In this document: in pieces, positions 1 through 51,779 of the stretch | Numbering within the stretch: position 1 is the stretch's first letter | Layout: each line of letters starts with the position of its first letter | Assembly (NCBI GenBank): GCA_963717445.1 | Contig: OY970334.1 | Span: 965,798-1,029,797 of the forward strand | Source of the DNA: an uncultured Bacteroidota bacterium | Lineage (GTDB): Bacteria; Bacteroidota; Ignavibacteria; UBA10030; UBA8401 | Direction of reading: 5' to 3' | DNA: 64,000 nt | The notes under the pieces: model-generated | Database searches by the model: none | What the model was told of the DNA's origin: nothing | The model's input: only the letters and a program-made list of their open reading frames with translations | Program-made: the position numbers and the translations under genes

Positions 1-1140
1 ATTTCCGCTGCGATTTTAAACCCGATATGAATCAATTGCCGGAACGACGTGCTGTAGCGTGCGCACGATTGATCATGTTTCAGCGCCAGAACAAAATCGG
101 CACTCCCCCATTTGTTGACCTCGGCGGGAGATGGAAGCAGTTCTTTTCGAATATCAATCACCGTGAGATATGGTTTTGCCAGCTCCTCAAAGCGAAGATA
201 CGACTGAGCGTAAACCTCTTTCGCGATATTGAGGCCTTCACCACCGGACTTTGCAAGACCGATAACCTCTTCGAGCCACGTCGTCCCCGCAGTTTTCAAG
301 TGAATTCCGGCATCAAGTTTTTTAATCGTTTTGTTGATCACGGGGTAGATGGAGAATTTGTCGCTTCCCGAATGGATACTGATCTTGAGCGTCTCGGGCA
401 GCCCGAATTCTGTGACAGCGTGAGCGATGACCGCGACATCCTGTTCAAATTCTACGGCAAATTGTGCGACATTGCCGATGTAATCGACCCCTTTAAGAAA
501 TTGTCCCGTAAATTTCGGAGCGACGGTCTGCAAGGGTACCTCTTCTTTTGAGAGCGCGGCAAGGATAAAGAACAACTCGACCGGAGTCTGCGGAGTGTTT
601 GTTTCATCGGTCGATACTTCTGTGATGAAATTTTCTTTTCCCTTTCGGGAAGCGATATAGCGGTAGATATTCCCCGCTTCCTTCACGGCAGAGAGATATT
701 TCTTTCCCACGGACACAATGTTTTCTGTGGTTACGTCAATTCCATTTTTGAGGCCCGGGATTTTAAGTGTGCCGATAAATCTCCGGCAGTACTTTGTGAA
801 CTCGGCAAGATCCCCGGGATCGGGTTCATGTCCGATAAAATCGGCCACGTCCAGTGTGAAGTAATTACTGGGTGTGATGAACAGATCCACGGTGTTAATG
901 CCGATGTGGTCGGCGTCAACGTAATACGGCGACTTCCAACCCAACTTTTTCACTGCATGGTCAGCCTCCAAACGAGTGTTCTGGGGTTGCGTTCCAATGA
1001 GAGTATGTTCTCGATTGGACTTGTTCCAAACGGGGACAACATCCACTCCATGTTCGCGTGCCTTGACAAACGCAGAAAGTTGTGCTACACCCTGATGTCC
1101 GAAACGATCACCAATTCCGATCGAGTATTTTTCAATTTTC
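1..1140 (-). CDS. uxaE: Tagaturonate/fructuronate epimerase UxaE-like (5' part only; the gene runs off the window start)
   Basis: My own reverse-strand translation from ATG at 1140 gives MKIEKYSIGIGDRFGHQG...KISIHSGSDKFSIYP...LKTAGTTWLEEV...FRQLIHIG. These blocks match motifs I recall from Thermotoga UxaE (SLHSGSDKFSVYP, KTAGTSYLEAV, RQLIHV). It is not in the ORF track because there is no stop codon inside the window. The plus-strand ORFs 27..551 and 828..1145 are antisense to it. Confidence 0.5.
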
Positions 1141-1239
1141 ATTAACTTGCGTCCTTTTGTTTAATACATGGTCCTAACGTCTTCTATTTTTCACTCTCAG
1201 CTTGTCAAATGAGCTGTCATGCATTCGCGGGAATATCGC

Positions 1240-2325
1240 TCACCGCTTGATTCTCGCACTCCCTCCGCCCATGACATGCTTGATCTCTTCCATTGTCACC
1301 ATACTTGTATCTCCCCGTGTGCTCTGCAATAGCGCGCCATGTGCTGCGCCCATTTCAACGCATTCATGCGGCGGCATTCCATGAAGGAAACCATAAACAA
1401 ACCCGCTGCAGAAACCATCGCCGCCGCCGACCCGGTCCTCTATTTCGAGATGGGAAAACTTGCGCGATTCGTGGAATGCTCCGTCGTAATACATGATTGC
1501 GGACCAATTGTTGACGAGGCCGCTCACCACTTCACGGAGCGTCGTCCCGACAGCCTGGACGTTTGGAAATGTCTCGACCACTCTTTTTACCATCTTCTTA
1601 TAGCCTTCGACGGGAAGGGATTTTAAATGTTCGTCGGTCCCCTCAACGTTAAAACCGAGCACTTTTTGGAAATCCTCTTCATTGCCGATGAGTACGTCGA
1701 TGAACGGCACGAGCTTTTTTGTCTCTTCGATTGCTTTCTTGCTTGACCAAAGCTTGCTGCGGAAATTCAGATCGTAACTCACAACCGTCCCGGCTTCGTG
1801 TGCCGCTTTCATTGCCTCGCACGCAACTTCCGCACAACTGTCGCTCAGTGCAGTGAAGATTCCGCCGGTATGAAACCAACGCGCTTTTCGACTACTGAAA
1901 ATCCGTTTCCAATCAACGTCAGAAGGCTTCATGTGTGCGACAGCCGTATGGCCGCGGTCGTACATCGTTACGCTGGCGCGCACACCTATGCCAACCTCAG
2001 TAAAATTCAACCCGATCCGATCTGTACGCCCGGATCCGTCATAAGGGACCCAGACGACTTCGCTTACATCCATACCGCTTGCACGAGCGTGGTTCTTGAT
2101 AAAGGCACCCAGAGGATTATCGACGAGGCGGGAGATCCATCCCGTTCTCATTCCATATCGGGCAAGAGCGTACGCAACATTATATTCCCCGCCGCCGGCA
2201 TACGCCTCGAACACCGGCGTCAGCTCTATGCGCTGGTGACCGGGAGGGCTTAAACGAATCATGCACTCGCCGAGGGAGAGAAGGTCGAATTCTGTTTCCG
2301 ATGCTGAATGAATTTGCAATGCCAT
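1240..2325 (-). CDS. kdgK: 2-dehydro-3-deoxygluconokinase (PfkB family sugar kinase)
   Basis: PfkB/ribokinase-like sequence, including GGGDGFCSGFVYG and GAAHGAL near the C-terminus. An internal ATG (MALQIHSASE) was verified at 2323-2325; the track ORF is over-extended upstream. Confidence 0.75.
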   Translation of the reverse strand: MALQIHSASETEFDLLSLGECMIRLSPPGHQRIELTPVFEAYAGGGEYNVAYALARYGMRTGWISRLVDNPLGAFIKNHARASGMDVSEVVWVPYDGSGRTDRIGLNFTEVGIGVRASVTMYDRGHTAVAHMKPSDVDWKRIFSSRKARWFHTGGIFTALSDSCAEVACEAMKAAHEAGTVVSYDLNFRSKLWSSKKAIEETKKLVPFIDVLIGNEEDFQKVLGFNVEGTDEHLKSLPVEGYKKMVKRVVETFPNVQAVGTTLREVVSGLVNNWSAIMYYDGAFHESRKFSHLEIEDRVGGGDGFCSGFVYGFLHGMPPHECVEMGAAHGALLQSTRGDTSMVTMEEIKHVMGGGSARIKR

Positions 2326-2506
2326 TGTGTTATCCAAGATTATAAATGTGAAACAGGTGAAAAATCGCCTCTCGCCAAGTCGCCGGCGAAGCCGACCCTT
2401 CGGGAAAAAGCTCAAGAACTATTTTTTGAATCATTTTGCGATTTTGGGTGATCCATACTTTTGGAATTATCCGGAAACCTCGATATTTGATTCGCCGGCA
2501 CCTGCA

Positions 2507-3784
2507 TCATTTCAATCGATAGAGGAGTTGACCGGCGTTTTCGACGACCAGCAGGCCGCCGTTTTGTCTTGCTTTCCATTCGGGAACGTTGATCGAGCGG
2601 TAATCAGCGTAACCGAGGTTGACGGCTCGGCAAACTTCTTCGGGGATCGAAGTTGCAAGCGTAACGTTGATGCGTGGTAATTCCACCCCATTCTCGAAGG
2701 TACCGATACCCCGCACGTTCGTCGAATGAGCAAGGATGAGTTTCGAGGTTCCCGAAAACCGGTCCCACTGTCGAACGAAGTAGTCGCGGATATGATACCC
2801 GACTTTGCGAATTTCCTTGCCGTGCACGTGAGAAATTTCTTTGATATGAGGGGCGTAGATGATCACTTCTCCGCCGTCAGCAATGATCGGCTCGTGCTTG
2901 TACATTACTTTCCCGGCCACCCAAATGTCGTCATATATCGTTGGCGCAAGACCGAGGACCGTGTTATAAGCATGGTCGACATATCTGATATGAACTTTCG
3001 AAGAACAATCTGCCGCTTTCCCCCAAGCCTCTTCGGGCGAGCCGATAAAGAGGGACGTCACAGCGTGATCATCGACGACGAAAGCAAAACATATCCGAGG
3101 CACGGAAATCATTGAGGCAGATTTATCGATGACCCGCCGGACAGGAGTATCTTTCACGCCGTTGACAACCGGGTTTGTGATGAGAGCTCCGATCCAATGG
3201 AATGTTTGGATAATCTCTTCGCCACCGATTCCCGGGAAAAAATATTTGTTCCCTCCGGCGAAGCCGACCGTCTCATGTGGAACAACCGGACTAATGAGAA
3301 TGATCTGATCGTAATCAAAAATGCGTTTGTTGATGGTGATATCCACTGCGTCGGTGAACAATCCCTCGGAGAGCCCGGACATCTCCGAAGCCGAGATTCT
3401 CCCGATCGTCCTGAGCTGTGCCGGATCGTTGTGTGAATGATTGAAGAATTTTGTCTTTGTGTGTATGGATTTATATTCTTCAGCGGTGATCCCTACAAGG
3501 CGGAGAATAATCTCCATCTCCAGCGGACGATGTGTGCCGGTTGCTATGAGATAATCGAGGGCACTCACTTTGGGTTCGAGGATATGTCCAAGCGTTTTAA
3601 AAAATACGGGAAGTTCCGCATGCCGGGTGGTGTCCGGTATGATAACTAAGATACGCCGTCCGTTCAATTGAAGTGATGAGAGTGCTCGCTCACTGAGGCT
3701 GTAGATTTCTTCTTCCATTTTCTGACGCGGGATAGCTTCGTTCCCGATGATCATCATTCCGCTACACCTTTCCGATTTCAACAC
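2507..3784 (-). CDS. LarA-like (DUF2088) nickel-pincer-nucleotide-dependent 2-hydroxyacid racemase/epimerase homolog
   Basis: A ~415 aa protein with ATGTHRP, PHETVGFAGGNKYFFPGIGG and QTFHW blocks. Their spacing fits the LarA catalytic His / NPN-binding Lys / His arrangement. The true start may be the internal MMIIG (~3757). The track start overlaps the upstream dehydrogenase by 23 nt. Confidence 0.6.
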   Translation of the reverse strand: MLKSERCSGMMIIGNEAIPRQKMEEEIYSLSERALSSLQLNGRRILVIIPDTTRHAELPVFFKTLGHILEPKVSALDYLIATGTHRPLEMEIILRLVGITAEEYKSIHTKTKFFNHSHNDPAQLRTIGRISASEMSGLSEGLFTDAVDITINKRIFDYDQIILISPVVPHETVGFAGGNKYFFPGIGGEEIIQTFHWIGALITNPVVNGVKDTPVRRVIDKSASMISVPRICFAFVVDDHAVTSLFIGSPEEAWGKAADCSSKVHIRYVDHAYNTVLGLAPTIYDDIWVAGKVMYKHEPIIADGGEVIIYAPHIKEISHVHGKEIRKVGYHIRDYFVRQWDRFSGTSKLILAHSTNVRGIGTFENGVELPRINVTLATSIPEEVCRAVNLGYADYRSINVPEWKARQNGGLLVVENAGQLLYRLK

Positions 3785-4919
3785 GGAAACCGATTGTCCT
3801 GAGCGGCTGCTGGAGGGCCGTTAACGAAGAGGGCAATGTAACAACTGTGTTAAAAAATTCGCGCCTCATGCGGTATTCGGCCCGCAAGCCTGCAAAAAAC
3901 GATCGGCGTTCATCAGGCAACACATTCGCAATCAGACGCAATGCGCGGTCATCGCACTCAATATCATAGCATTGGCTCACAATTTTTCTTAACACTTCTT
4001 CATGGGATTCGGTGCCTTGCGGCACAATAACATGTTCAACCGCCGGTTTGGGCAGCGAATTCCCCTGCGTCCACGTTTCCGGCTGGCCGAAGAATTTGCA
4101 TGCGACCGAGTACATCATTTTCACCGCAGCAAGTTTTCCGTCGAATGAATATCCTGCGATATGTGAAGTGGCAATATCAACTTTCTCCATAAGATCGATA
4201 TCAATCAGCGGCTCCCCTTCCCACACATCAAGGAGCGCGCCTCCGAGGTGTTTGCATTCAATCGCTTCTTTCAGCGCCTCTCCATCTACAACGGCACCAC
4301 GTGCCGTATTAAACAGGATTGCTCCTTTTTTCATTTTATTGATACGTGTGCCGTCAAAGAGATGAAACGTTGGATCGCTCCCCGACTTTGTGAAAGGGAC
4401 ATGAAGAGTGATGAAATCCGCTTCCATCAATTTGTCCAGAGGTGCGTAGGAAGGATCCGCCGTCACGCGGGCAAGAGGAGGATCGTTCTGCAGCACATTC
4501 ATTCCCAACGCCCTCGCATTCCTGACGATCTTGCTTCCCACATTTCCAACACCAACCACGCCGAGAGCTTTCCCGGAGAGGGTGAACCCCTTCCGTTTTG
4601 CCAGCGTAAGAACTGCCGACGTGAAATACTCTGCAACTGAATTTGCATTCGAACCGGGCGCACTCGCAAAACCGATTCCCCGCAATCGGAGATATTCAAG
4701 ATCAACATGGTCCGTGCCGATCGTAGCCGTCCCGACAAATTTGACCTTGCTCCCATCGAGCAAATCTTTTGTCACCTTCGTTTCCGAACGAATAATGATC
4801 ATGTCGGCGTCGCGGAGAGTCTCCTTCGTAATTTCCTTAGTCCCTAATGCTTGAACTTCGCCGAATTGACGAAATGCTTCCCCAACGAGCGGGTTATTTT
4901 TATCTACGACTACGCGCAT
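3762..4919 (-). CDS. PdxB-family D-isomer-specific 2-hydroxyacid dehydrogenase (erythronate-4-phosphate dehydrogenase-like, with C-terminal dimerisation domain)
   Basis: Strong blocks in common with E. coli PdxB: KFVGTATIGTDHVD, GVVGVGNVG, LDVWEGEP, VDIATSHIAGYSFDGK. ATG (MRVVVDKNN) verified at 4917-4919. Confidence 0.7.
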   Translation of the reverse strand: MRVVVDKNNPLVGEAFRQFGEVQALGTKEITKETLRDADMIIIRSETKVTKDLLDGSKVKFVGTATIGTDHVDLEYLRLRGIGFASAPGSNANSVAEYFTSAVLTLAKRKGFTLSGKALGVVGVGNVGSKIVRNARALGMNVLQNDPPLARVTADPSYAPLDKLMEADFITLHVPFTKSGSDPTFHLFDGTRINKMKKGAILFNTARGAVVDGEALKEAIECKHLGGALLDVWEGEPLIDIDLMEKVDIATSHIAGYSFDGKLAAVKMMYSVACKFFGQPETWTQGNSLPKPAVEHVIVPQGTESHEEVLRKIVSQCYDIECDDRALRLIANVLPDERRSFFAGLRAEYRMRREFFNTVVTLPSSLTALQQPLRTIGFRVEIGKV

Positions 4920-4984
4920 GATACCTTCCAACTTACGACTTCTTACTGCATACCAACTACCCAACAACCGCTACGCAAAAAAGG

Positions 4985-5767
4985 TTAAATCGTCATACTT
5001 GTGAATCCGCCGTCGACCGGGACGACTGCGCCTGTAACAAATGAGGAGGCCTTTTCGGAGGCCAGCCAAAGAAGCGCACCCGACAATTCGTTGGGTTCTC
5101 CATATCTTGCCATCGGAGTATGGGAGAAAATCGATTTGCGCCGTTCTTCGGTCAGTATTTTGCGATTCTGTTCAGCGGGGAAAAAGCCGGGCATAATGGC
5201 ATTAACGCGAATCTTATGTTGTGCCCACTCCTTTGCTAGAAAACGGGTCATGTTGTTTACGCCCGCTTTCGAGATAGAATATGTGAAAACCCGGGATAAC
5301 GGCGGTCCCGAAGAAACCGACGAGATATTAATGATGCTCCCTCCGCTTTTCTGTTCGATCATTTGTTTGGCAAAAACACGGCACGAGAGAAAAACTCCCT
5401 TTAAGTTCGTGTCGAGAATGTTATTCCATTCTTCATCGGAGATATCAAAAACTGGGGTAGGTGAATTGACACCGGGTGCGTTGACAACGATATCAATTTT
5501 TCCCCAGAGGGAAACGATTGCATTCTTGCCTTTTTCAACGCCCGCTTCCGATGCGGTATCAACTTGGACAGCTTTTGCCGTCCCGCCCGCCTGCTCGATA
5601 GCCCGAACCACTTTCTCCGCACCGGCTGCGTTGTTATGGTAGCCGACTGCCACTTTCGAGGAAGCCTGTCCCAACGCTTGTGCCATGCTGCCTCCCAGAA
5701 CTCCGCTCCCCCCGATAACAACCGCAACCTTCCCCTCAAGGCTGAATAAATTATCTACATACGACAT
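4985..5767 (-). CDS. kduD: SDR oxidoreductase, KduD / gluconate-5-dehydrogenase-like
   Basis: FSLEGKVAVVIGGSG, NAPG, IINISS, YSISKAG, WAQHKIRVNAIMPG and VVPVDGG are collinear with E. coli KduD. The Rossmann TGxxxGxG and YxxxK motifs are present. Confidence 0.6.
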   Translation of the reverse strand: MSYVDNLFSLEGKVAVVIGGSGVLGGSMAQALGQASSKVAVGYHNNAAGAEKVVRAIEQAGGTAKAVQVDTASEAGVEKGKNAIVSLWGKIDIVVNAPGVNSPTPVFDISDEEWNNILDTNLKGVFLSCRVFAKQMIEQKSGGSIINISSVSSGPPLSRVFTYSISKAGVNNMTRFLAKEWAQHKIRVNAIMPGFFPAEQNRKILTEERRKSIFSHTPMARYGEPNELSGALLWLASEKASSFVTGAVVPVDGGFTSMTI

Positions 5768-5817
5768 ATGTTACTCTTTGAATATTGTGTTTATGTTTTT
5801 TTCGCCGTCCAATGAGC

Positions 5818-7089
5818 TCAAAGTTTAACCGGCTTGACGTTGGCGGTCAGTAGCGACATCAAGCCGAGGGCCAGCAAATACGCAGAGCCGCAAATGATAA
5901 AGAGTATCATATAGCTGCCTGTCGCTTGAACGATGTATCCAGCAGCCGTCAAGAAAATCATACCTCCCACAGAGCCGGCAAATGCGCCGAGTCCCACAAC
6001 TGAACCTACCACTTTTTTGGGGAACATATCTGACGCCGTTGTGAATATATTCGCCGACCATCCCTGGTGTGCGGCTGTCGCCAAACCAATGATCCCGACC
6101 GCCAGCCACATATTGGAAACGTTAGCGGCAACAACAACCGGGACAACGAGGAGCGCAAAAATCAACATGGTCACTCTTCGCGCTCTATTGACTGCCATTC
6201 CACGCTTGATCATTGCTCCGGAAAGATATCCACCGCCGATACTCCCTATACTTGTCATCGTATAAATAACAATGAGCGGCAAACCAATCCCGGAAAGCGT
6301 GATGCCGAAGTTGTTATTTAAATACAACCCCAACCAATAGAGATAGAACCACCACACCGGGTCGGTAAGAAACTTGCCGACCACGAATGCCCATGTCTGG
6401 CGATACTTGAGAAGCCGTAACCAAGGAACTTTCTCAGACGGTGAATCCGGTGGATCGCTGAGGATGTACGCCATCTCTTCTTGCGAAACTCTTTTCGCCG
6501 CTTCAGGCTTTTCATAAAATATGATCCACAAAACAAGCCAGACGAAACCGGTCGCACCGGTTGCAATAAATGCCGACTGCCAGCCGTACGTCACCGTCAA
6601 CCAGGGAACCACGGCAGGAGCCACAACCGCGCCGATGTTCGCCCCCGAATTAAAAATTCCGGTGGCCAGTGCCCGTTCTTTTTTCGGAAACCATTCTGCG
6701 GTCGCTTTGATCGCAGAAGGAAAATTCCCCGACTCACTCAGGCCGAGAAAAAAGCGAGCGACGCCAAAACCGAACACCGTGCTCGCGAGGGCATGTGCCA
6801 TTGCGGCAATGCTCCAGCCAGTGATCGAAATTGCATAGCCTATCTTTGTACCATATTTATCGACAAACCATCCGAAGACCCCAAGACCGATGGCATAGGC
6901 AGCTTGAAAGGCTGTTCCGATGTAGCCATACTCAATGGAACTCCAGCCGATTTCCTTTTGCAGTGTCGGCGCAAGGATACCGAGGATATTTCTGTCGAGA
7001 TAATTGATCGTCGTTGCAAAAAAAAGTAAACCGCATATCGTCCATCGATGTCGGCCGATATTCTGATTTACTTCTAATGTTCCGGTCAT
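5818..7089 (-). CDS. exuT: MFS transporter, hexuronate (ExuT)-like
   Basis: A 12-TM hydrophobic profile. The N-terminal RWTICGLLFFATTINYLDRNILGILAP block is typical of the ExuT/anion:cation symporter family. Location is inside the uronate operon. Confidence 0.65.
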   Translation of the reverse strand: MTGTLEVNQNIGRHRWTICGLLFFATTINYLDRNILGILAPTLQKEIGWSSIEYGYIGTAFQAAYAIGLGVFGWFVDKYGTKIGYAISITGWSIAAMAHALASTVFGFGVARFFLGLSESGNFPSAIKATAEWFPKKERALATGIFNSGANIGAVVAPAVVPWLTVTYGWQSAFIATGATGFVWLVLWIIFYEKPEAAKRVSQEEMAYILSDPPDSPSEKVPWLRLLKYRQTWAFVVGKFLTDPVWWFYLYWLGLYLNNNFGITLSGIGLPLIVIYTMTSIGSIGGGYLSGAMIKRGMAVNRARRVTMLIFALLVVPVVVAANVSNMWLAVGIIGLATAAHQGWSANIFTTASDMFPKKVVGSVVGLGAFAGSVGGMIFLTAAGYIVQATGSYMILFIICGSAYLLALGLMSLLTANVKPVKL

Positions 7090-7156
7090 GCGCGTTCTTC
7101 ATTTCCAGGGTGAAAGACATCTTCCACGAAGCTATCGGTCTATTATTCCTTCGGTC

Positions 7157-7990
7157 TTACAAAAGCTCTCTCATCGGCACGGCGTCCATATCCGAAAATT
7201 CCTGATTTTCTCCTCCCATCGCCCAGATGAACGAGTAGTTCCTTGTTCCCGCCGCTGAATGGATCGACCATGGGGGAGAAATGACGGCTTGTTGATTTCT
7301 CATAATCAGCGCCCTCGTTTCGTTCGGTTTGCCCATCAAGTGGACAACAAAAGACTCCTCATCAAGCCCAAAATAGAGGTAGACTTCCATCCTGCGCTGG
7401 TGCGTATGGCTCGGCATTGTATTCCATACGGAACCGTCGTTCAATGCTGTCAAGCCCATGACCAACTGGCTGCTTTTGATACCTTCGGGGTGGACGTATT
7501 TCGTTATCGTTCTGGCATTGGCATTATGGGACGATCCGAGGGGCGATTTCGTTGAGTCGTTGAAGCGTGCGTGGGCGACGGGATAGGCCGCATGCGAGGG
7601 GTACGAGACGAAATAAAACAATGACGGCTTATTCGGGTCGGCACTCGCGCATTCGATCTCCCGAACCCCTCTCCCGACATACAGCAGGTCTCTAAATGCC
7701 ATCGCGTAAGCTGTGCCGTCCACATATAATTTCCCATCCCCTCCGATATTGATGATGCCGACTTCGCGTCTCTCAGCAAAGAAATCCGCAGCCATCTCTT
7801 TCTTCGATGATTCCAATTTCAACCTCGTCGCCAACGGGACGGCAGATCCGACGATCACACGATCGACGTCCGAGTAGATCATCGTTACAACATTCGGCGC
7901 AAATAAGTTATCGATAACAAAGGACCGTCTAAGCTCAGCCGTTGTCATCCGTTGATACGCTTCATCGTTCGGTGCAAATCGTACTTCCAT
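7157..7990 (-). CDS. kduI: 5-dehydro-4-deoxy-D-glucuronate isomerase
   Basis: Collinear with E. coli KduI: NVVTMIYSDVDRVIVG, RREVGIINIGG, NTMPSHTHQRRMEVYLYF, AVISPPWSIHSAAGT, IWAMGGENQ. Confidence 0.85.
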   Translation of the reverse strand: MEVRFAPNDEAYQRMTTAELRRSFVIDNLFAPNVVTMIYSDVDRVIVGSAVPLATRLKLESSKKEMAADFFAERREVGIINIGGDGKLYVDGTAYAMAFRDLLYVGRGVREIECASADPNKPSLFYFVSYPSHAAYPVAHARFNDSTKSPLGSSHNANARTITKYVHPEGIKSSQLVMGLTALNDGSVWNTMPSHTHQRRMEVYLYFGLDEESFVVHLMGKPNETRALIMRNQQAVISPPWSIHSAAGTRNYSFIWAMGGENQEFSDMDAVPMRELL

Positions 7991-8135
7991 AATTATTCCA
8001 TATCATCTTTCAAGCGACCGCGATGGTTCCATCGTTCCGCCAAACAAACACTTAAGATACAAAAAATCACACTTTTTTGCTCTGTTACTCGCATCATAGA
8101 TATCGAACACAGTTTCCTTCCACAACATTATCCGA

Positions 8136-9545
8136 TCACGTAAATTCAAAATATTTTTTCGCATTGTTGTAACAGATGTCCTTCACAAACGCGCCGACAA
8201 GCCCGACATCGTCCGGGATAATTCCTTCGTCCATCTCCCGGCCAAGGATGTCGCATACCAGACGCCGGAAATACTCGTGCCTGGGATATGAGAGAAAACT
8301 GCGTGAGTCCGTGATCATCCCGACGAACTGGCTGAGTAATCCCATGTTGGAGAGGGCTTCGATTTGCCTTGTTATGCCATCTTTCTGATCGAGGAACCAC
8401 CATGCCGCGCCATATTGCATTTTACCCGGAACGGAACCGTCCTGGAAATTCCCGATCATGGTGGCGTACACTTCGTTATCGCGGGGGTTGACATTATAGA
8501 GGATGGTCTTTGCGAGCTTGCTTTCTTTATCGAGGCGGTCTAGGAGCTTTGCCATCGGCCGGGCGATTGGTTCGTCGCCAATTGAATCGAATCCCGTGTC
8601 GCGACCGAGTGTTCGCATCATTCGCGTATTGGTATTTCTCAATGCGCCGACGTGATATTGCTGAACCCATTTGTATTCACAATTTATGACTCCCAATTCA
8701 TACAGCATGGCCGACTTAAACGCTGCAACCTCGGCTGAATTCAGCGTTTTCTTCTGGAGCAATTTCTTGAAGATTGTTTTGATCTGAGCATCAGTATAGT
8801 CTTCCGCATATATCGTCTCCATACCATGGTCGGACGTTCTGCATCCATGGCGTGCGAAATAATCGAACCGTGAACGAAGGGCATCGAGAAATCGATCAAA
8901 CGATGTAATGTCGAGGTTTGCAGCGCGCGAAAGAGATTTCACATACCCGGCAAATGCCTTGCTGTCTTCAACCGCGAAAGCTTTATCCGGGCGAAATGCG
9001 GGGAACATCCGAGTGCTACCGGAGATTTTCGAATACTGTTCGTGATATTCGAGGGAGTCAATGGGATCATCGGTGGTGCACACCACTTCCACATTCATCT
9101 GTTTTAAAATCCCTTGTGCAAAGAATTGAGGCGTTGCAAGTTTTCGATTGCACTCATCCCAAATGCTCTTCGCGGTCATTGCGTCGAGCAAGCGATCGGA
9201 GATCCCGAACGGGCGCTTCAATTCCATGTGCGTCCAGTGGTAGAGGGGATTCCTGAGCGTCTTGGGAACGGTTTCAGCCCACTTTTGAAACTTGTCCCAA
9301 TCACCTGCGTCTCCTGTTACGAAGCGCTCGTTGACGCCGCTCGCCCTCATTGCGCGCCACTTGTAGTGGTCTCCGTTCAACCAGACTTGTGTCAAGTTCT
9401 CAAACTGCCTATTCTCGGCGATTTCTTTTGGAGAGAGATGACAATGATAATCGATAATCGGCATTGTTTCGGCGTAGTCGTGGTACAGCGTTTCTGCCCT
9501 TTTTGTCTTTAGAAGAAAATTTCTATGAACGAATTCTTTTTTCAT
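8136..9545 (-). CDS. uxaC: Glucuronate isomerase
   Basis: 469 aa. The N-terminal IIDYHCHLSPKEIAENRQFENLTQVWLNGDHYKWRAMRASGV block is the UxaC signature. Confidence 0.85.
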   Translation of the reverse strand: MKKEFVHRNFLLKTKRAETLYHDYAETMPIIDYHCHLSPKEIAENRQFENLTQVWLNGDHYKWRAMRASGVNERFVTGDAGDWDKFQKWAETVPKTLRNPLYHWTHMELKRPFGISDRLLDAMTAKSIWDECNRKLATPQFFAQGILKQMNVEVVCTTDDPIDSLEYHEQYSKISGSTRMFPAFRPDKAFAVEDSKAFAGYVKSLSRAANLDITSFDRFLDALRSRFDYFARHGCRTSDHGMETIYAEDYTDAQIKTIFKKLLQKKTLNSAEVAAFKSAMLYELGVINCEYKWVQQYHVGALRNTNTRMMRTLGRDTGFDSIGDEPIARPMAKLLDRLDKESKLAKTILYNVNPRDNEVYATMIGNFQDGSVPGKMQYGAAWWFLDQKDGITRQIEALSNMGLLSQFVGMITDSRSFLSYPRHEYFRRLVCDILGREMDEGIIPDDVGLVGAFVKDICYNNAKKYFEFT

Positions 9546-9588
9546 CGTAATGTCTTTCCATTTTGCCGCCCTGTATGACGGGGCAGAC

Positions 9589-10863
9589 TCAAAAAATTAC
9601 CCGGATTGGATTATTAAGTTCCTCTGCGATCGATTTGAGGTACGAACGAAATTCTTCGAGGCTCGTAATCCCGTTCTGTTCCTGCTGCCATGCGGCAGCA
9701 AAATAGTATGTCAATTTACCTCCGCGGGGGCGCAGGATGACAAGATAACTGACATTGTCGGCACGTCGTTCGATTTTCTCCGAACCTTTATAGAACACTG
9801 CAATTCCCATGTTGTCACCAGCACGGGATTGCTTCCCAAACAATCCGAAGTACTGCCAACCTTTGTCCGGTCGACCGGTCGACTCGACGAGCGTTGTGTT
9901 CTCATGTTTTGCGAGACCGGTGCAAAGGTTCGACGGATTTGGAGAAATCTGTTCCTTGCACATCGTCAACCGGCTCCCGGCAGTGATCGAATAACTCGAT
10001 ATAAGATTATATTTTTTCCCTGCGACATTCCAGCCATAATATACAGCCCGTACATCGGAACGAACGGGGCCGTTTGCGGCAATAATACAAAATACACTGT
10101 CGGTGCTCGAAACGGTGACGACATCCGTTCCGCTTTGCATCGCAAGAGAACCAATACCTAGCGATGTACCAACCTTGAAATTATCCATTCCCCAATACAA
10201 CATAGATTCGTACGATTCGTTGTTGTTGGCAACGAGATCGTGTACCCCCGCGGTGTTTAGTACCATGTCCGCCACCTTCTTACCGAAAATATCAGTCCGG
10301 TTGCGCTCGTCCAAATAAAATCGATATCCTATTTTATCCGACTCCCATGTGGGCCCCTCGTGCTGGAATAACCCGTCGTGGTCAACGTGAACTGCGGGCA
10401 CTCGGACCGAATCGATGCGAACAAACCTTCCTTTCGCGTACTTTCCGTTCACGAACTCATAGTCCACCTTGATCGACATATCCGCCTGGGTCCGTTTCCT
10501 GTACTCTTTCTTTGGCAGTGCGTGCGGCCCCCATCGCAAAACGATTAATTTCTGCTCGTTCGGCGCGAAATCAGTGACGAACGTGAGCAGGTCGGGGGAT
10601 CCATTGCGGTCGGTATCATCAAACTGGCTTGGTAGTTCAACTCCTCCCGAATAGACCGTGCATGAACGCGGGTCAAAAGTCGGAACCTCCTTCTCGATCG
10701 ACGCAACGTCAATTGATATTGCTTCATCAATCCGCGCAATTGCCAAGGTATTCGAAGCATGTACGACGAGAGAATCGGGCAATGGTCGATGTGCACCATC
10801 TTTTGCGTAAGCAGTGAAGAGCGACAAACAGAGAGCAAGGGTGAGGGCAACAAAGTATTTCAT
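9589..10863 (-). CDS. Secreted DUF4861-like protein, a family I recall being co-located with kduI/kduD in Bacteroidota pectin loci
   Basis: Signal peptide MKYFVALTLALCLSLFTAYA (ATG verified at 10861-10863). About 420 aa with no catalytic motif I recognise. The family call is from memory of genomic context. Confidence 0.4.
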   Translation of the reverse strand: MKYFVALTLALCLSLFTAYAKDGAHRPLPDSLVVHASNTLAIARIDEAISIDVASIEKEVPTFDPRSCTVYSGGVELPSQFDDTDRNGSPDLLTFVTDFAPNEQKLIVLRWGPHALPKKEYRKRTQADMSIKVDYEFVNGKYAKGRFVRIDSVRVPAVHVDHDGLFQHEGPTWESDKIGYRFYLDERNRTDIFGKKVADMVLNTAGVHDLVANNNESYESMLYWGMDNFKVGTSLGIGSLAMQSGTDVVTVSSTDSVFCIIAANGPVRSDVRAVYYGWNVAGKKYNLISSYSITAGSRLTMCKEQISPNPSNLCTGLAKHENTTLVESTGRPDKGWQYFGLFGKQSRAGDNMGIAVFYKGSEKIERRADNVSYLVILRPRGGKLTYYFAAAWQQEQNGITSLEEFRSYLKSIAEELNNPIRVIF

Positions 10864-11105
10864 TGTTTTCCTTTCGAATGCCAGTAAGAAAACCGGACAG
10901 TCAACCGGGGTTTCTCGATTCAAGAAGATGTCGGGCATCTTATCTCAAAAATTGTGCTCAGCTAAAAATTTACTCCGGTCAATTGATGAGATGATCGACA
11001 TCTCGCAAAATACTCTAACGCCATGCTCTTCGAGTGCCAGTCGAGACGACTGACACCCGAAGGAATCATGACCGTTTCAAAACGTTGAACAACTGAACGT
11101 GCAAT

Positions 11106-13130
11106 TTATTTCAACAGCATCATTTTCTTTATAAATATAACTCCCGGCGATGACAATCGGTAGAAATAAATTCCCGATGACATGCTCGACGCGTTGAAAT
11201 TCGCCGTATAGAAGCCCGGCTGCATCACCCCATTGACCAGCGTAGCAACCCTTCTTCCAAGAACATCGAAAATTTCCAGAGTGATTTGGGATGCCTTTGG
11301 AACAGCGTAAGCGATCTGGGTTGAGGGGTTGAACGGGTTCGGATAATTCTGCGCCAACGAGAATTCTTTCGGCAACAGTGATTGAGCATCCGCCACACCC
11401 GTCACCTTGTTTCCCTTGCCGCTGACGGCCACGGAATCCGGTGATCCGAGAGCGTCGTACACCAACTTGATATAGCCGGATTGGCTGCTCGTGTCGGCGG
11501 GTGTAAACGTGATGACGAGATATGCATTGGCTCCAGAGTTGACGGCCACCGATCCAGATGCGGCAGCAAATGCCGAGTTTGATGAAGTGACCGTAAAGTG
11601 GACAGTACCTGGCCCAACATTCGTAAGTTGAATGCTGTCCTTCTTCGATGAAAGAAGGTTCACAGTACCGAATTTAATCTCGTGTCCGGAGACCGTAACA
11701 GGGGTCGTTGTCAGGGTCGGTGTGCCCCAGCGTGGATCGCCAGCGACTATACCATCTGTCGTTGTCATGCTCGCGAGCAATGACGCAGTACCTGCGATAT
11801 TGCAATTCAAAGTATCGAAATAATACTCGACATGCCTCCGGTTGTAGTCATACGTCCAATGCCCCGGAGAATCTTTCGTGAAATTCGGATCGTTGCCATT
11901 TTTTTGTTTCCCATCGCCTCCGAGTGACCGAGGCTCATAGATCCAACGGATCATCTTTGTCATAAGTGGAGGAGTGTTGTTGAGCGTAATGGCGACCTGT
12001 TTGAAACCCTTGGTAGTGTCCTTACCCTGCGCGGCCAACGTTGTGTTCATCCCCCAGGTGAGCCATGGCCCTTCACTTTGATAATAAGGACCGTTCGGGA
12101 GAGGAAGATTTAACATGGCCTGACCTGAATCCGACACCGCATAGTAGTTGTTGGAAATGTTCCATTTTGCGGCGAGGTTTCGATTTGTCAGCACCCATGC
12201 CATTCTCGGCTGCAAGTTGACTGTATCAAGTTCGCCGGGATCGCTGAATTCGACTTGTCGAATGTATGCCGTATCAGCTCCGAGGGCGAAATGGTCGACA
12301 AGCAAGTTGTTCGTTATCTGGAGTATACCTGCGCCCGTCGAGTCAACCCTCCCGAGGGAGAGAAACCCATGGTACGAGACACTATTGACGATGGTGTTAT
12401 GATTAAAAATAAAGTTCTTAATCGGGCCGAGTGTTGACTGGTAATGCCTGACCACTCGGTCTTGCAGGTTGACGAACGTGCAGTTCTCGATATCGCACGT
12501 ATCGACAATATTGTTTCTTAGGTCGATCCCTTTGCCGGCTCCGAAATTGGACGTTCCCTCAAACCCCATGTCTGCGAAGATGGAGTTGGTCACCTTGACG
12601 ACATGCGGTTGTCCGTCTGTTCTAAGCAAATTACCATTGACGGACTTCAAGATGCAGCTATCAACGTAAATGCTGCCGCCGCTGCCGGAGGCGTTCAGGT
12701 CGATGAGACCTCCCTGCAGGTGGTCGAGGTTGGAATCGACCGGTTCGTAGTATCCCGTGATGATAATGTGCTTAAGATAAATAGCGCCACCTGCAAGATT
12801 TGCAAACTCTCCAGGGGGGTTTCCGTTTGTCCCCGGATACAGATAGACCGTAGGATCGTAGTGGCCGCTACTCCCGTACTCACAACGAAAACTGAGGGTC
12901 TTGTTTGCAAATGCAAGTTGCGCGTTGAGGAGATAGACTCCATCTTTCTTTAATACGTAGACGCGTGTTCCGCCCTGAAAAGCGGCGCTTGAGGTGTCCT
13001 GGAAAATCAGCGTGTTGAGATACTGATTTCCCGACCCCACGTAGTCCTGCAAGACTAAATCCTGAGCGAACAAAGCCATCGGAAGCATCAGAACCATCAA
13101 AGCAGGAAAAATGTAACTGAGCTTAAGCAT
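11106..13130 (-). CDS. Secreted right-handed beta-helix protein (pectate-lyase-like fold) with type A T9SS C-terminal sorting domain
   Basis: Signal peptide MLKLSYIFPALMVLMLPMALFAQ (ATG verified at 13128-13130). Repeated N/G/T-rich beta-helix turns. The C-terminus reads LAQNYPNPFNPSTQIAY...GIYFYRL...IKKMMLLK. Confidence 0.6.
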   Translation of the reverse strand: MLKLSYIFPALMVLMLPMALFAQDLVLQDYVGSGNQYLNTLIFQDTSSAAFQGGTRVYVLKKDGVYLLNAQLAFANKTLSFRCEYGSSGHYDPTVYLYPGTNGNPPGEFANLAGGAIYLKHIIITGYYEPVDSNLDHLQGGLIDLNASGSGGSIYVDSCILKSVNGNLLRTDGQPHVVKVTNSIFADMGFEGTSNFGAGKGIDLRNNIVDTCDIENCTFVNLQDRVVRHYQSTLGPIKNFIFNHNTIVNSVSYHGFLSLGRVDSTGAGILQITNNLLVDHFALGADTAYIRQVEFSDPGELDTVNLQPRMAWVLTNRNLAAKWNISNNYYAVSDSGQAMLNLPLPNGPYYQSEGPWLTWGMNTTLAAQGKDTTKGFKQVAITLNNTPPLMTKMIRWIYEPRSLGGDGKQKNGNDPNFTKDSPGHWTYDYNRRHVEYYFDTLNCNIAGTASLLASMTTTDGIVAGDPRWGTPTLTTTPVTVSGHEIKFGTVNLLSSKKDSIQLTNVGPGTVHFTVTSSNSAFAAASGSVAVNSGANAYLVITFTPADTSSQSGYIKLVYDALGSPDSVAVSGKGNKVTGVADAQSLLPKEFSLAQNYPNPFNPSTQIAYAVPKASQITLEIFDVLGRRVATLVNGVMQPGFYTANFNASSMSSGIYFYRLSSPGVIFIKKMMLLK

Positions 13131-29337: not shown

Positions 29338-30405
29338 TTATTTAGCCTCAACAGCGATTTTTTTCTGTAGCGAGAGGGGGTTGCACGTTTCTCTCAGAGT
29401 TAAACTCGCGGGGATCACGATGTGACGTTCTTTTTGTTTTTCATGACTCTTGATGACGTTGAGAATCGTGCGAACCGCCGTTATACCGAGTTCCCGTGTC
29501 GGCTGGTTCACGCAACTCAAAGCGGGCGAAAGCAAATGACTCATATCACTGTCTCCGAAGCACATGATGTCGATATCATCAGGAATTTTCAGCGCCAGTT
29601 TTTTTGCCGCTTCGTAGACTCCGAGCGCCACAGGATATGTTGCGGCAAAAATGAATTCCGGCAGCGTCCCCTTGTCATAGAGTTGCATGAATCCGTCGTA
29701 GCCATCTTTTGTTCCGAAGCCGCCGGGGACTATCCACTCCTGGCGAATCGGAATATTATGGCTTTTCAGCGCCTCTTCGAACCCAAGGAGGCGATTCTTG
29801 CCGATATTGATCCATGGATTCCCACCCCCGATAAATCCGAGCTTCCGGTGGCCTGCGTTGACGATCGCATGTTCCACGGCGTTGCGCGTCCCCTGCCGGT
29901 CGTCAATCAGGACCGAGTCGAAACCAAAAAGCTTCGGCTCCGGCATGCGGTCGACAAAAAGGAGAGGAACGCCCATCTTCTTCACCCATTGAAAGATGTC
30001 GAGGTTTTTCGTTTCCTGGGAAATTGAGATGATGATTCCGTCGACCCTCATTGAGATGAGCGTCTCGATATGCTTCCTCTCCCGTTCTTCGTTTTCCTGC
30101 GAAACGGTTAAGATCGTTTCGTAATTATTCTCAAACGCGGTGTTGTACACCGCCTCGATCAGCGATCCGAAGAAAAAGTGTGCAATTTTCGGGACCACGA
30201 AGCCGAGCATGTTCGAACGGCGCGCCGAGAGATTGCGTGCCATATAGTTCGGGCTGTAGCCCAATTCTTTGGCGATGCGCCTTACTTTCTTGGCAGTCTC
30301 ATCGGAAATATCGGAGTGACCTCGCAAGGCCTTTGAGACCGTTACCCTTGAAACTTTGAGCTTCCTGGCTATATCATCCAATGTAACATGGGCACTGCGT
30401 TTCAC
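29338..30405 (-). CDS. LacI-family transcriptional regulator
   Basis: N-terminal HTH VTLDDIARKLKVSRVTVSKALRG followed by a periplasmic-binding-protein-like sugar-binding core. Confidence 0.85.
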   Translation of the reverse strand: MKRSAHVTLDDIARKLKVSRVTVSKALRGHSDISDETAKKVRRIAKELGYSPNYMARNLSARRSNMLGFVVPKIAHFFFGSLIEAVYNTAFENNYETILTVSQENEERERKHIETLISMRVDGIIISISQETKNLDIFQWVKKMGVPLLFVDRMPEPKLFGFDSVLIDDRQGTRNAVEHAIVNAGHRKLGFIGGGNPWINIGKNRLLGFEEALKSHNIPIRQEWIVPGGFGTKDGYDGFMQLYDKGTLPEFIFAATYPVALGVYEAAKKLALKIPDDIDIMCFGDSDMSHLLSPALSCVNQPTRELGITAVRTILNVIKSHEKQKERHIVIPASLTLRETCNPLSLQKKIAVEAK

Positions 30406-31676: not shown

Positions 31677-33446
31677 TTATCGCATGAGGAGAAGTTTGAT
31701 AGACTGCTCTTGACCGCCGGCATTTAGCCTGCAAATGTACACTCCACTTGCCCAGCGATCCGCTGAAACCAGCACGCTGTATTCGCCCGGACCGCGAACA
31801 CCCTGGTCGAGGAGGGAGATTTTCCTTCCGAGGATATCGAAAAACTCCAGTACTGCATGCATCGTTGCAGAGAGTCGATACCGGACTATTGTCGCAGGGT
31901 TAAATGGATTCGGATAATTTTGATACAGCTCAAAAGCGGCTGGAACCAAGCTTCGTCCGGCGGGCACAGCAGTTGGCGTGCCGGCCAGTTCGTTGAGATA
32001 TTCTTCGAGTTTGGTGTATCCGCTCGCGTCAACGATATTCCGGTCTAAAGGATCGTACGGGTTCAAGCCGTGTGCGATTTCCCATGTATCGGGCATGCCG
32101 TCATGATCAGAATCGGGCGGAGCAGGGAGCGAATTAAGCACCGGCCAGCCCCCGACATCGCTTTGGGAATCAATGATACCATGAGGAACGGTTGTATCAA
32201 GACCGTTGCTTATTTCATACGCATGAGTATGGCCGCTGTATGTTGCGGTCCGATGTGCAACTTCGTACACAATTCGGCTATCTATCGTGTCGCGCTTCGG
32301 GAGCGTGGCGCCCGCATTCGCTAACACGAGCGTATATGCATCCTGCGGCGAATTTGTTGTCACTTCGGGAAAAGGAAATGGAGTAAATGCTTGTGCGGTG
32401 CTCATCCTGAAACCGGAGTATTGCGGCGCAACCCCTTTCCAGTTGTCGTAGGTGACCGCTGTGTCCCCGTCAACATAATTTCCGGCGATGTAAAACGTAC
32501 CTGTTGAATCACCCGATCCGTATGGGTTAAAAATTCTGCTCTTCACATCGGCTTTCGTAGCGGGTCCGTATTTGTAATAATTGTTAACGATATTGATTTC
32601 GCTCTCCTCACCTCCATACGAACTGTTAAAGCCCCAGTTGTAAATCACGTTGTTCCGGAAATCGAGATTCTGCGAAGAGTCTGTGCCCGAGCCTGCCGGA
32701 GTTGGTCCGGAGAAGCGCGGGTTTCTGCTCGAGTGGTGAGCGAATAAATTGTGATGGTACGTCGAATTGAAACCTCCCCAAATTCCGCCGTAGCCGTGAG
32801 CTCCCTTTGGATCGTAACTATTATAAAGGCTTTCGCTGATAAGACACCACTGGATCGTGAGACTGTCATATCCGTAAAATGAAAGGGATTCGTCGAGACT
32901 CCAACTTGCAGAGCAATGGTCAACGATAATATCTTTCTTGTTGTGTGAAATTTGACTATACCCGTTGATCGCATCGTCAACAGGCTTGCCGGCTCCCTGA
33001 TCGCCGAACCGGGATCGGATGTATCGGATAATAACTTGATTCGCGCTGACGTTGAACGTGAAATTTCTCAGGCAGATTCCGTCTCCCGGAGCAGTCTGGC
33101 CGGCTACCGTGATTGAATCTTTCGTAATTTTCAAAGGCTCAACCAGTGCGATAGTGCCTGAAACGCGGAAGACAACGGTCCTCGCCCCGCTCTGATTGAT
33201 TGCCCATCGAAGTGTGCCGACAACGTTGGTGGCGGTCGTGTCGAGTAGCGTCGTTACTTCCAGCACTTTCCCGCCACGTCCGCCCCATGTGTACATTCCG
33301 CCCCCCTCCGCTCCGGGAAAGGCAAGTTGCTGCGGAAAGACCGATGGCACAGCAACGCACAACAGCATCACTGACGGCAACAAAATCCTGAACCTATTAC
33401 GACAAACCATGGTTTCCTTCATTTGAGAAACAAAGAGGTGCAACAC
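31677..33446 (-). CDS. Pectate lyase (PL1-like) with type A T9SS C-terminal domain
   Basis: AFPGAEGGGMYTWGGRGGKV...TLRWAIN...RTVVFRVSGTI...VAGQTAPGDGI is the PL1 N-terminal signature. The C-terminus reads LYQNYPNPFNPATIVRY...GVYICRL...IKLLLMR. The true start is probably an internal ATG (MKETMV or MVCRNRF, ~33410-33422). Confidence 0.75.
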   Translation of the reverse strand: MLHLFVSQMKETMVCRNRFRILLPSVMLLCVAVPSVFPQQLAFPGAEGGGMYTWGGRGGKVLEVTTLLDTTATNVVGTLRWAINQSGARTVVFRVSGTIALVEPLKITKDSITVAGQTAPGDGICLRNFTFNVSANQVIIRYIRSRFGDQGAGKPVDDAINGYSQISHNKKDIIVDHCSASWSLDESLSFYGYDSLTIQWCLISESLYNSYDPKGAHGYGGIWGGFNSTYHHNLFAHHSSRNPRFSGPTPAGSGTDSSQNLDFRNNVIYNWGFNSSYGGEESEINIVNNYYKYGPATKADVKSRIFNPYGSGDSTGTFYIAGNYVDGDTAVTYDNWKGVAPQYSGFRMSTAQAFTPFPFPEVTTNSPQDAYTLVLANAGATLPKRDTIDSRIVYEVAHRTATYSGHTHAYEISNGLDTTVPHGIIDSQSDVGGWPVLNSLPAPPDSDHDGMPDTWEIAHGLNPYDPLDRNIVDASGYTKLEEYLNELAGTPTAVPAGRSLVPAAFELYQNYPNPFNPATIVRYRLSATMHAVLEFFDILGRKISLLDQGVRGPGEYSVLVSADRWASGVYICRLNAGGQEQSIKLLLMR

Positions 33447-51700: not shown

Positions 51701-51779
51701 TCCCCGCCCCCGCAGATGCAGTCAATACAGTTGCCGATGGCAAAAGAATGTCGGTTTCCTTGTTAATGCCGGAAGGCAT
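48699..51779 (-). CDS. addA: AddA/RexA-type UvrD-family helicase with C-terminal nuclease
   Basis: Walker A TASAGAGKTYALT and the UvrD motif AITFTNNAAAEMKQRI. The C-terminus has a RecB-like nuclease (DFKTGG...YxxQ). Confidence 0.7.
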   Translation of the reverse strand: MPSGINKETDILLPSATVLTASAGAGKTYALTHRYVQILLSDKTRHNALQSVLAITFTNNAAAEMKQRILTLLKLASFGDEKTLRELGNLISMDRADIELKASRLIDGILDNYSDFQVKTVDSFMSTVFKSSSLEYGYHPDFEILMSADSFFDQAFDIFSKEVKENSGQARVVEKIVELISESRRGESTFLWNPYGHLTGEVKKIYKAVAAQTKPLSSNSSSSTLFSLRERIKAQALKVQAEIKKSGLAVGSLFADDLELIRTDNIHALIERKQRASPVNKPKGKAETAAYERWIGEIDNEHRQLNELLGQFFLQYVESYYQPYAETYTLLQQTIEKLKKQNGQVFIDDVNRTLAGHLNVESVPEIYFKIGETIYHYLIDEFQDTSQIQWRNLFPLIEESLSKGGSLFVVGDTKQSIYGFRDADWRIMKQLTEVNPFPSAHHEVNSLDLNYRSLEKIVTFTKDVFHTIIPGEGFRDEAAASGLSTYEQHVTPDHTGKGYVEVDVVQEDGVDPPEKLKLLSIVDDCHARGYRFNEIAILTPNNNNVIEVSGWLNEQRIPIISHSTLDVRRRKSAGEFIALLRFLDSPVDDLSFATFILGDVFNNVMAKRRGGAARNEIAQFIVNARIRGRDPLYTAFRDRFQKVWNEYFEHLFNVVGYLPLYDLVSEAYKIFNVFYTSPDEEASLVKLLEVIRAFEQRGANTTKNFLEYSEDDTNDDVWKIDVPKDIDALQVMTIHKAKGMEFPVVIVLLYDSIPRGKSFLLREDEDAVSILKVNKKIADNVEQVRVLLKEEQFKETVDTFNKLYVAFTRAENEMYVVGVYKKERKEPTKFLPQKGYEPASKPPVIVSDVQEENLFLPFHHTIRKPLLVQTYESVGRQEAKRGDFIHRVFSTIEFLNDDLEVQVDAAVVGVSHEMPAPDSIEEVKKLICRFLEEPNLHECFIRKEGRVVLLEQDLTNREGALYRADRIVIDPKSVTVVDFKTGGDETESDYIIQVRNYMLILKEIYPAKEVGGCIAYVDLKKTRSVS

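Follow-up and report, generated by a model that had tools for sequence, protein, structure and literature searches.

The closest described relatives of the gene pair reported here belong to two enzyme families. In the lactate racemase LarA of Lactiplantibacillus plantarum, the cofactor, a nickel-pincer nucleotide (NPN), is held by R75, K184 (the covalent tether) and H200 (a nickel ligand), and the catalytic residues are D72, H108, H174 and K298. Another LarA-superfamily enzyme, GntE2 (LarAH20, PDB 4NAR) of Thermotoga maritima, was shown in 2020 to be an NPN-dependent D-gluconate/D-mannonate 2-epimerase; it turns over free D-mannonate with a kcat of ~200 per second, and the Km values of characterised GntEs for free mannonate are high, at 17 and 9.4 mM (PMC7583248). 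Such a function had been predicted for Thermotoga from gene context in 2012, according to PMC7583248 and PMC6978723, and the latter places gntE between the genes for fructuronate reductase and gluconate kinase. The second family is that of PdxB, the 4-phosphoerythronate dehydrogenase of pyridoxal phosphate (PLP) synthesis. Here we analysed a 64,000-nucleotide stretch of DNA from an uncultured Bacteroidota bacterium of the Ignavibacteria lineage (contig OY970334.1, positions 965,798 to 1,029,797; hereafter the window), in which a LarA homolog and a PdxB-family gene lie side by side on the minus strand among hexuronate genes. A first-pass annotation of the window had found this pair and proposed that it forms an epimerase/oxidoreductase step acting on sugar acids. 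We think it probable, if by no means certain, that the pair consists of a GntE-type epimerase and an ordinary PdxB, co-transcribed within a pectin/hexuronate operon.

The LarA homolog contains the Pfam domain Lar_N (PF09861; 74.4 bits, cutoff 23.3). Its best match in the PDB is 4NAR, with E = 5.3e-63, 216 bits and 37% identity over 375 aligned residues, which is near full length, and further matches are 2YJG, 6D6Z and 5HUQ. The equivalents of the NPN-binding residues are R45, K171 and H187 in the numbering of the 416-residue protein, aligned to R41, K164 and H180 of GntE2, and the equivalents of the catalytic residues are D42, H76, H161 and K283. All seven are invariant among 77 homologs, so that an alignment check for loss of the NPN lysine or the catalytic histidines, which the first-pass annotation had called for, found every one of them in place. 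The same annotation had read the motif GGNK...TFHW as keeping the spacing of the catalytic His and the tethering Lys; this is borne out, as H161-K171-H187 match H174-K184-H200 of LarA. The protein scores far below the lactate racemase model NF033504 (58 bits, cutoff 460).

Substrate preference was assessed at the four positions of a 2024 survey (F175, F176, W358 and T359 in LarA), at which GntE usually has E, V, A and H. The LarA homolog has E162, T163, A343 and H344, which fits the GntE pattern. Among the 77 homologs, the first position is always E, the second is A, T, V, S or C, and the third and fourth are always A and H (100% each); in GntE2 itself, the first two residues are E and S. On these grounds, the LarA homolog is best read as a GntE-type mannonate/gluconate 2-epimerase. 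The interconversion of mannonate and gluconate, which was among the steps first suggested, thus gains support from the residues and from the similarity to GntE2, but its presentation as a route outside the textbook pathways does not hold as a novelty, since the GntE/Gnd route is already described.

We next turn to the PdxB homolog. Proteins of the PDXB subfamily are marked by a C-terminal dimerisation domain and by an Asp and two prolines in the cofactor loop; the phosphate is proposed to be anchored by R44, which belongs to an R-S motif, by Y258 and by an arginine of the dimerisation domain, R346, and the subfamily is documented in Bacteroidetes as well as in gamma-proteobacteria (PMC6303947). 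The initial premise that PdxB is tied to gamma-proteobacteria was correct as far as these bacteria are concerned but incomplete. The window protein contains the Pfam domains 2-Hacid_dh, 2-Hacid_dh_C and DUF3410 (38.8 bits for the last, cutoff 31.4) and has full-length PDB matches to 3OET (2e-80), 5DT9 (2e-72) and 2O4C (4e-71), with the alignment to 2O4C spanning residues 1-378. It keeps R44-S45, D146-P-P, Y257 and R346, together with R207, E236 and H253, the counterparts of the catalytic triad R208/E237/H254 in Pseudomonas aeruginosa numbering, and across 142 homologs all of these vary little or not at all. Its score against the equivalog model NF001309 is 405.3 bits, which is under the cutoff of 434. 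Homologs of the same lineage score alike, whether they lie in housekeeping contexts (403.7 and 422.2 bits) or are linked to the cluster (412.4 bits), so the low score appears to be a trait of the lineage rather than of this gene.

Four PdxB homologs (P0233, P0204, P0194 and P0218) were found outside uronate clusters; their neighbours are either a two-component system or, on the two sides, a TMEM260-like gene and dcd. In a neighbour-joining tree these unlinked proteins nest among the linked ones, and the identities between linked and unlinked proteins (48-59%) fall within the range seen among linked proteins. Conservation among 54 linked PdxBs defines 127 columns, and at none of them do the unlinked copies differ consistently. 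A paralog split, or specificity-determining positions that would set linked PdxBs apart, was sought with the tree and the columns, and none was found. P0233 is on the same contig as an epimerase locus that has Gnd, the 6-phosphogluconate dehydrogenase (6PGDH), and is without PdxB (L037), and among the best 120 PdxB homologs no large contig carries two copies, which speaks, if weakly, for one copy per genome. Such a distribution fits a single gene that has moved rather than a paralog. Since residues, scores, tree and conserved columns all match the unlinked homologs, we read the window protein as the ordinary PdxB of its lineage, relocated rather than duplicated and diverged. The role first predicted for it, as the oxidoreductase half of a sugar-acid step, is not supported: the protein retains all PdxB determinants, just as its housekeeping orthologs do, and its sequence gives no sign of such an activity.

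In transcription order, the minus-strand operon reads DUF4861-uxaC-kduI-MFS-SDR-pdxB-larAH-kdgK-uxaE, where MFS denotes a major facilitator superfamily transporter and SDR a short-chain dehydrogenase/reductase (Table 1). Both larAH and pdxB are genuine genes, not chance open reading frames (ORFs), and they overlap or abut as initially described. The pdxB ORF extends from ATG 4919 to its TAG stop at 3764-3762. The larAH ORF covers 2507-3784 if it begins with GTG, which gives an overlap of 23 nt with pdxB, but ATG 3757 is the likeliest start because homologs begin with 'MM...', and this start leaves a spacer of 4 nt. A purine run, GGAAAGG, lies within the final codons of pdxB, ahead of the larAH start. 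The first identification of uxaE, kdgK, kduI, uxaC and the transporter is confirmed by matches in Pfam, NCBIfam and PDB; the best PDB match of the kdgK product is 2AFB, the T. maritima 2-keto-3-deoxygluconate (KDG) kinase (E = 6.6e-70). The SDR had been called kduD-like and is reassigned here, as it scores 276 bits against the D-mannonate oxidoreductase model PRK08277 (cutoff 281) versus 188 bits for KduD, and its counterpart in other loci reaches 380 bits with the former.

A scan of species-representative genomes for the epimerase yielded 80 species-level loci, from Bacteroidota/Ignavibacteria-type metagenome-assembled genomes (MAGs), KSB1, Myxococcota, Gemmatimonadota and others, onto which the window proteins and extra families were mapped (±10 kb). 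The conserved module consists of an SDR of the mannonate oxidoreductase type, the epimerase and a PfkB kinase, with uxaC and uxaE nearby, and the kinase nearly always follows the epimerase directly. Gnd is found in or beside the gene string in at least 45 of the 80 loci. These include the loci closest to the window (L001, L004, L006, L007, L009-L011 and L013), while L012 has a weak Gnd match of 33%. In Myxococcota and KSB1, Gnd is directly upstream of the epimerase; elsewhere it comes after Kin2, a further kinase of the PfkB type. The locus nearest to that of the window, L001, whose epimerase is 88% identical to that of the window, reads DUF4861-UxaC-KduI-MFS-SDR-PdxB-LarAH-Kin1-UxaE-Kin2-Gnd-KduD-Eda, where Kin1 corresponds to KdgK. 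By synteny, the window operon very probably continues leftward as Kin2-Gnd-KduD-Eda. The ORFs of 200 or more residues in the window include no mannonate/altronate dehydratase (UxuA/UxaA), and this family was not seen in the loci examined, except L086.

Two observations concern the kinases. Kin2 (13859-14926 in L001, 4593-5714 in L040, and present in most loci) is ~41% identical to the window kinase and matches 2AFB at 3e-45. It almost always adjoins Gnd or the epimerase, and it is the sole kinase of the Myxococcota loci, which are without KDG-forming genes. We regard Kin2 as a candidate for a 6-kinase of gluconate or mannonate within the PfkB family. KdgK, for its part, has an amino-acid identity of 83-95% across loci, and in seven of them (L014, L018, L022, L029, L037, L053 and L072) it is 84-87% identical, while the epimerases are only 54-64% identical. 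Recent horizontal transfer of kdgK was considered and dropped, as its third codon positions are saturated (~0.42-0.48 identity) to the same degree as those of the epimerase gene. Since these synonymous positions are saturated, the conservation of KdgK points to unusually strong purifying selection.

From the genes of the window and their synteny we infer the activities and the direction of flux as follows. Galacturonate and glucuronate would be converted by UxaC into tagaturonate or fructuronate, and UxaE would yield fructuronate. The SDR (4985-5767) would turn fructuronate into D-mannonate, the substrate of the epimerase, and the LarA homolog would then invert C2 through transient hydride transfer to the NPN cofactor, giving D-gluconate. 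A sugar-acid kinase would phosphorylate D-gluconate to 6-phosphogluconate, from which 6PGDH would produce ribulose-5-phosphate. KduI and KdgK would feed a parallel branch for unsaturated uronates (5-keto-4-deoxyuronate) that ends at 2-keto-3-deoxy-6-phosphogluconate (KDPG). PdxB (3762-4919) would serve PLP synthesis as an ordinary 4-phosphoerythronate dehydrogenase and would not be a partner of the epimerase. The GntE/Gnd route may replace the dehydratase route, because UxuA/UxaA is unseen in the loci apart from the exception noted above.

The first-pass annotation had suggested looking for the pair in other uronate loci, and it does recur. In 33 of the 80 species-level loci, PdxB immediately precedes the epimerase, with a spacing of ~2-8 nt in 27, an overlap of 4-7 nt in 3 and a spacing of 35-44 nt in 3, and variant arrangements also occur. 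Altogether, ~35 species have PdxB beside the epimerase/Gnd module; the genes are arranged in five ways, and the epimerases belong to two LarA subgroups. Besides the arrangement of the window, the gene orders are SDR-Gnd-PdxB-LarAH (L017, L022, L026 and L027), SDR-PdxB-Kin1-Kin2-LarAH18-Gnd with a transketolase (L085), Kin2-LarAH18-Gnd-PdxB-UxaC (L086) and Gnd-PdxB-sulfatase-LarAH (L080, an Anaerolineales MAG). The epimerases of L085 and L086 are true LarAH18 proteins (653-661 bits) and only 27-31% identical to the window enzyme, which indicates that PdxB is tied to the module leading from mannonate to 6-phosphogluconate and Gnd, not to one epimerase gene. Much of this recurrence may be inherited synteny, yet the variety of arrangements suggests selection. 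The linkage is apparently unreported so far, as a search of one literature library found no paper mentioning both pdxB and uxaC.

Two further remarks concern this linkage. PdxB was considered as a replacement for Gnd, since both can occupy the slot upstream of the epimerase; this idea was discarded, as several loci carry Gnd-PdxB-LarAH and most PdxB loci have Gnd downstream. In L080, the PdxB-family gene (in the region ~6970-11250) is 44% identical to that of the window, adjoins Gnd and is separated by ~1.9 kb, which include a sulfatase gene, from the epimerase downstream of it. This MAG is labelled Chloroflexota, outside the taxa described for the PDXB subfamily, and either a transferred module or an error in binning could account for this case.

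Several points weigh against a GntE-type epimerase accompanied by an ordinary PdxB. On the side of the epimerase, an identity of 37% to GntE2 leaves room for another hexonate or a phosphorylated substrate. The protein fails the LarAH18 model NF052594, its best NCBIfam match (162.9 bits, cutoff 500), and no curated model covers the clade to which it belongs. Among the ORFs of at least 200 residues in the window, larB, larC and larE were not found. Gnd and the presumed aldonate kinase are assigned to this operon by synteny alone, as the window stops within uxaE. On the side of PdxB, a purely housekeeping function leaves unexplained its closeness of 2-8 nt to the epimerase in 27 loci, as well as its recurrence beside Gnd and with the other LarA subgroup, and an essential biosynthetic gene is odd within an inducible catabolic operon.

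One explanation of this placement, which we regard as possible though rather unlikely, is that PdxB is kept in the GntE/Gnd operon to consume 4-phosphoerythronate (4PE) and so to shield 6PGDH, with its normal chemistry put to a damage-control role. All carbon from uronates would be routed by way of Gnd and then the non-oxidative pentose phosphate pathway, and erythrose-4-phosphate would be adventitiously oxidised to 4PE. The latter is a potent inhibitor of 6PGDH, and if it is not removed, gluconate, which enters at 6-phosphogluconate, becomes especially toxic in Bacillus subtilis (PMC6449344). Co-induction of PdxB would be sensible because the Gnd route is maximally exposed to 4PE. Consistent with this, PdxB directly follows Gnd in three of its five arrangements (L017/L022/L026/L027, L086 and L080), it accompanies GntE2-like and LarAH18-type epimerases alike, and a transketolase is present in one PdxB cluster (L085). 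In ten loci, the gene after the kinase or the epimerase encodes a 297-residue HAD-IA-like hydrolase (2279-3172 in L072; also L014-L016, L018, L022, L037, L063, L065 and L078); nine of these ten loci have no PdxB, and this hydrolase could be an alternative answer to the 4PE problem. Against this, the evidence is wholly circumstantial. Synteny by descent can account for much of the recurrence, given that the linked loci are related to one another by phylogeny, and many Gnd loci carry neither PdxB nor the hydrolase. The hydrolase itself is without informative similarity, having no PDB match and only marginal matches to HAD-IA or phosphoglycolate phosphatase, and the literature search mentioned above likewise found nothing that connects pdxB to uxaC.

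Another explanation concerns the epimerase, and we judge it unlikely. The PfkB kinase would act first and produce 6-phosphomannonate, which the LarA homolog would convert into 6-phosphogluconate. This order was seen in extracts of Lactobacillus suebicus, in which mannonate is phosphorylated and 6-phosphomannonate is then epimerised, while free mannonate is not epimerised (PMC6978723). The genes of that route are unassigned, and a homolog of the Thermotoga candidate is present in the L. suebicus proteome. It would also fit that known GntEs have a high Km for free mannonate and that a PfkB kinase almost always comes directly after the epimerase. On the other hand, the closest characterised relative, GntE2, does epimerise free D-mannonate, and at a high rate. 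The kinase adjoining the epimerase in the window is a close ortholog of the T. maritima KDG kinase, and no phosphate-binding feature was identified in the epimerase.

Very improbable is a neofunctionalised PdxB-like protein that acts as a D-2-hydroxyacid dehydrogenase on a sugar acid (gluconate, 6-phosphogluconate or 2-keto forms) in a redox/epimerase pair: the D-2-hydroxyacid dehydrogenase family also includes 2-ketoaldonate and 2-keto-6-phosphogluconate reductases, the pdxB/larAH junction is tight and conserved, and the NF001309 score falls slightly short, but the unlinked housekeeping homologs share this score, the proposed anchors for the 4-phosphate of the four-carbon substrate are all conserved along with the dimerisation domain, no clade or column separates linked from unlinked proteins, and in the one genome examined with an epimerase locus lacking PdxB the gene lies elsewhere on the contig.

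The pair, in our preferred reading a GntE-type epimerase beside an ordinary PdxB, lies near the left end of the window, among the features listed in Table 1.

Table 1. Features of the hexuronate operon and a regulator gene of the pectin locus in the window
Feature	Coordinates	Strand	Basis
uxaE, tagaturonate/fructuronate epimerase	1..1142	-	Pfam UxaE 185 bits; syntenic in related loci
kdgK (Kin1), PfkB-family 2-keto-3-deoxygluconate kinase	1240..2325	-	Pfam PfkB; likely ATG 2325
larAH, GntE-type LarA-superfamily gene, 416 aa (predicted)	2507..3757	-	Lar_N; 4NAR/GntE2; residue conservation
Spacer of 4 nt between pdxB stop (TAG 3764-3762) and larAH start (ATG 3757-3755)	3758..3761	-	
pdxB, 4-phosphoerythronate dehydrogenase ortholog, 385 aa, three domains	3762..4919	-	Pfam, NF001309, PDB
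SDR, probable fructuronate reductase/D-mannonate oxidoreductase	4985..5767	-	NCBIfam PRK08277
MFS transporter, ExuT/galactonate-transporter-like	5818..7089	-	Pfam MFS_1 204 bits; TIGR00893 264 bits
kduI, 5-dehydro-4-deoxy-D-glucuronate isomerase	7157..7990	-	NF002091 402 bits, cutoff 250
uxaC, uronate isomerase	8136..9545	-	Pfam UxaC 692 bits; NF002794 636 bits
DUF4861 protein, heads conserved gene string	9589..10938	-	Pfam DUF4861 311 bits
LacI-family regulator	29338..30405	-	Pfam LacI and Peripla_BP domains

The start codon of uxaE is at 1142-1140, and the 3' part of this gene lies beyond the left edge of the window. At the other end of the operon, the DUF4861 gene is syntenic in the closest loci L001, L004, L010 and L011, and its product also weakly matches the BT3233 family of polysaccharide-utilisation proteins. 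Between the epimerase stop and the likely kdgK start there is a non-coding gap of ~180 nt (2326-2506), while most other junctions of the operon are below 100 nt, and neither an Rfam match nor a convincing terminator was found in this gap. A promoter/terminator consensus scan of positions 1-11200 returned sites no more numerous than in shuffled sequence and is uninformative on internal promoters and operon boundaries. Rfam at the gathering threshold and a tRNA scan gave no matches in the whole window.

Beyond the operon, the window holds a pectin-utilisation locus and, after it, unrelated genes. The pectin locus contains two GH28 genes, a pectinesterase, a GH88 gene, a GDSL esterase, the LacI regulator, beta-helix proteins sorted by the type IX secretion system (T9SS) and a TonB-type receptor. 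The LacI-family protein is a candidate regulator of the pectin locus, and LacI genes also adjoin several related loci. Three large minus-strand ORFs within the locus, 31677-33446, 35087-36574 and 37616-39859 (589, 495 and 747 residues), sit between T9SS-sorted proteins, a gene resembling PorV and a CarboxypepD_reg receptor-like gene; no Pfam domain was found in them, save that the first ends in a weakly matching sorting tail. An AddAB-like helicase/nuclease pair (45886-51779, minus strand) lies downstream of the pectin locus, and an IS110-family transposase (62801-63931, plus strand) lies near the right end of the window.

The GntE/Gnd route converts pectin-derived uronates into ribulose-5-phosphate without net redox cost and has been flagged for metabolic engineering (PMC6978723). 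Our reading would make this route widespread in uncultured Bacteroidota/Ignavibacteria, KSB1, Myxococcota and Gemmatimonadota. For annotation, it suggests that the 'lactate racemase domain' genes of such loci would be better named hexonate 2-epimerases, and that the adjoining PdxB should not be relabelled as a sugar-acid dehydrogenase. Should PdxB instead be retained as a 4PE scavenger, bacteria may handle 4PE toxicity by co-expressing an enzyme that consumes it rather than a phosphatase.

Among known systems, the window enzyme resembles GntE2 in its fold, in all NPN-binding and catalytic residues and in its selectivity type, with E and a small residue after the catalytic His and A-H in helix 14. 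The two genes also share their operon slot, with fructuronate reductase on one side, a sugar-acid kinase on the other, and uxaE and 6PGDH alongside. The window enzyme differs in being only 37% identical, in coming from a mesophilic, Bacteroidota/Ignavibacteria-like host, in the PfkB type of the kinases in its locus, and in the insertion of pdxB directly upstream of the epimerase. LarAH18 (NF052594, 'nickel-dependent putative hexonate epimerase') shares the clustering with Kin1, Kin2, Gnd, UxaC and PdxB in L085 and L086, but the window protein falls in a different subgroup (163 bits against a cutoff of 500; 27-31% identity). With LarA (5HUQ) it shares the superfamily, the tethering Lys, the nickel-binding His and the catalytic His pair, although the similarity is very weak (E = 2e-3) and the bulky F, F and W of LarA are replaced by E, T and A. 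The PdxB protein agrees with the solved PdxBs of Escherichia coli/Salmonella (3OET), Vibrio (5DT9) and P. aeruginosa (2O4C) in its three domains, in the R-S motif and D-P-P loop, in the catalytic triad R/E/H, in the C-terminal dimerisation domain, and in the Tyr and the Arg (the latter within that domain) to which phosphate binding is ascribed by proposal; unlike them, its gene is tightly joined within a hexuronate catabolic operon and its NF001309 score is just under the cutoff. Finally, the mannonate kinase/6-phosphomannonate 2-epimerase route of L. suebicus is likewise fed by UxaC, UxaE and fructuronate reductase and leads to 6-phosphogluconate and 6PGDH with no dehydratase, but relative to the route proposed for the window the order of phosphorylation and epimerisation is reversed.

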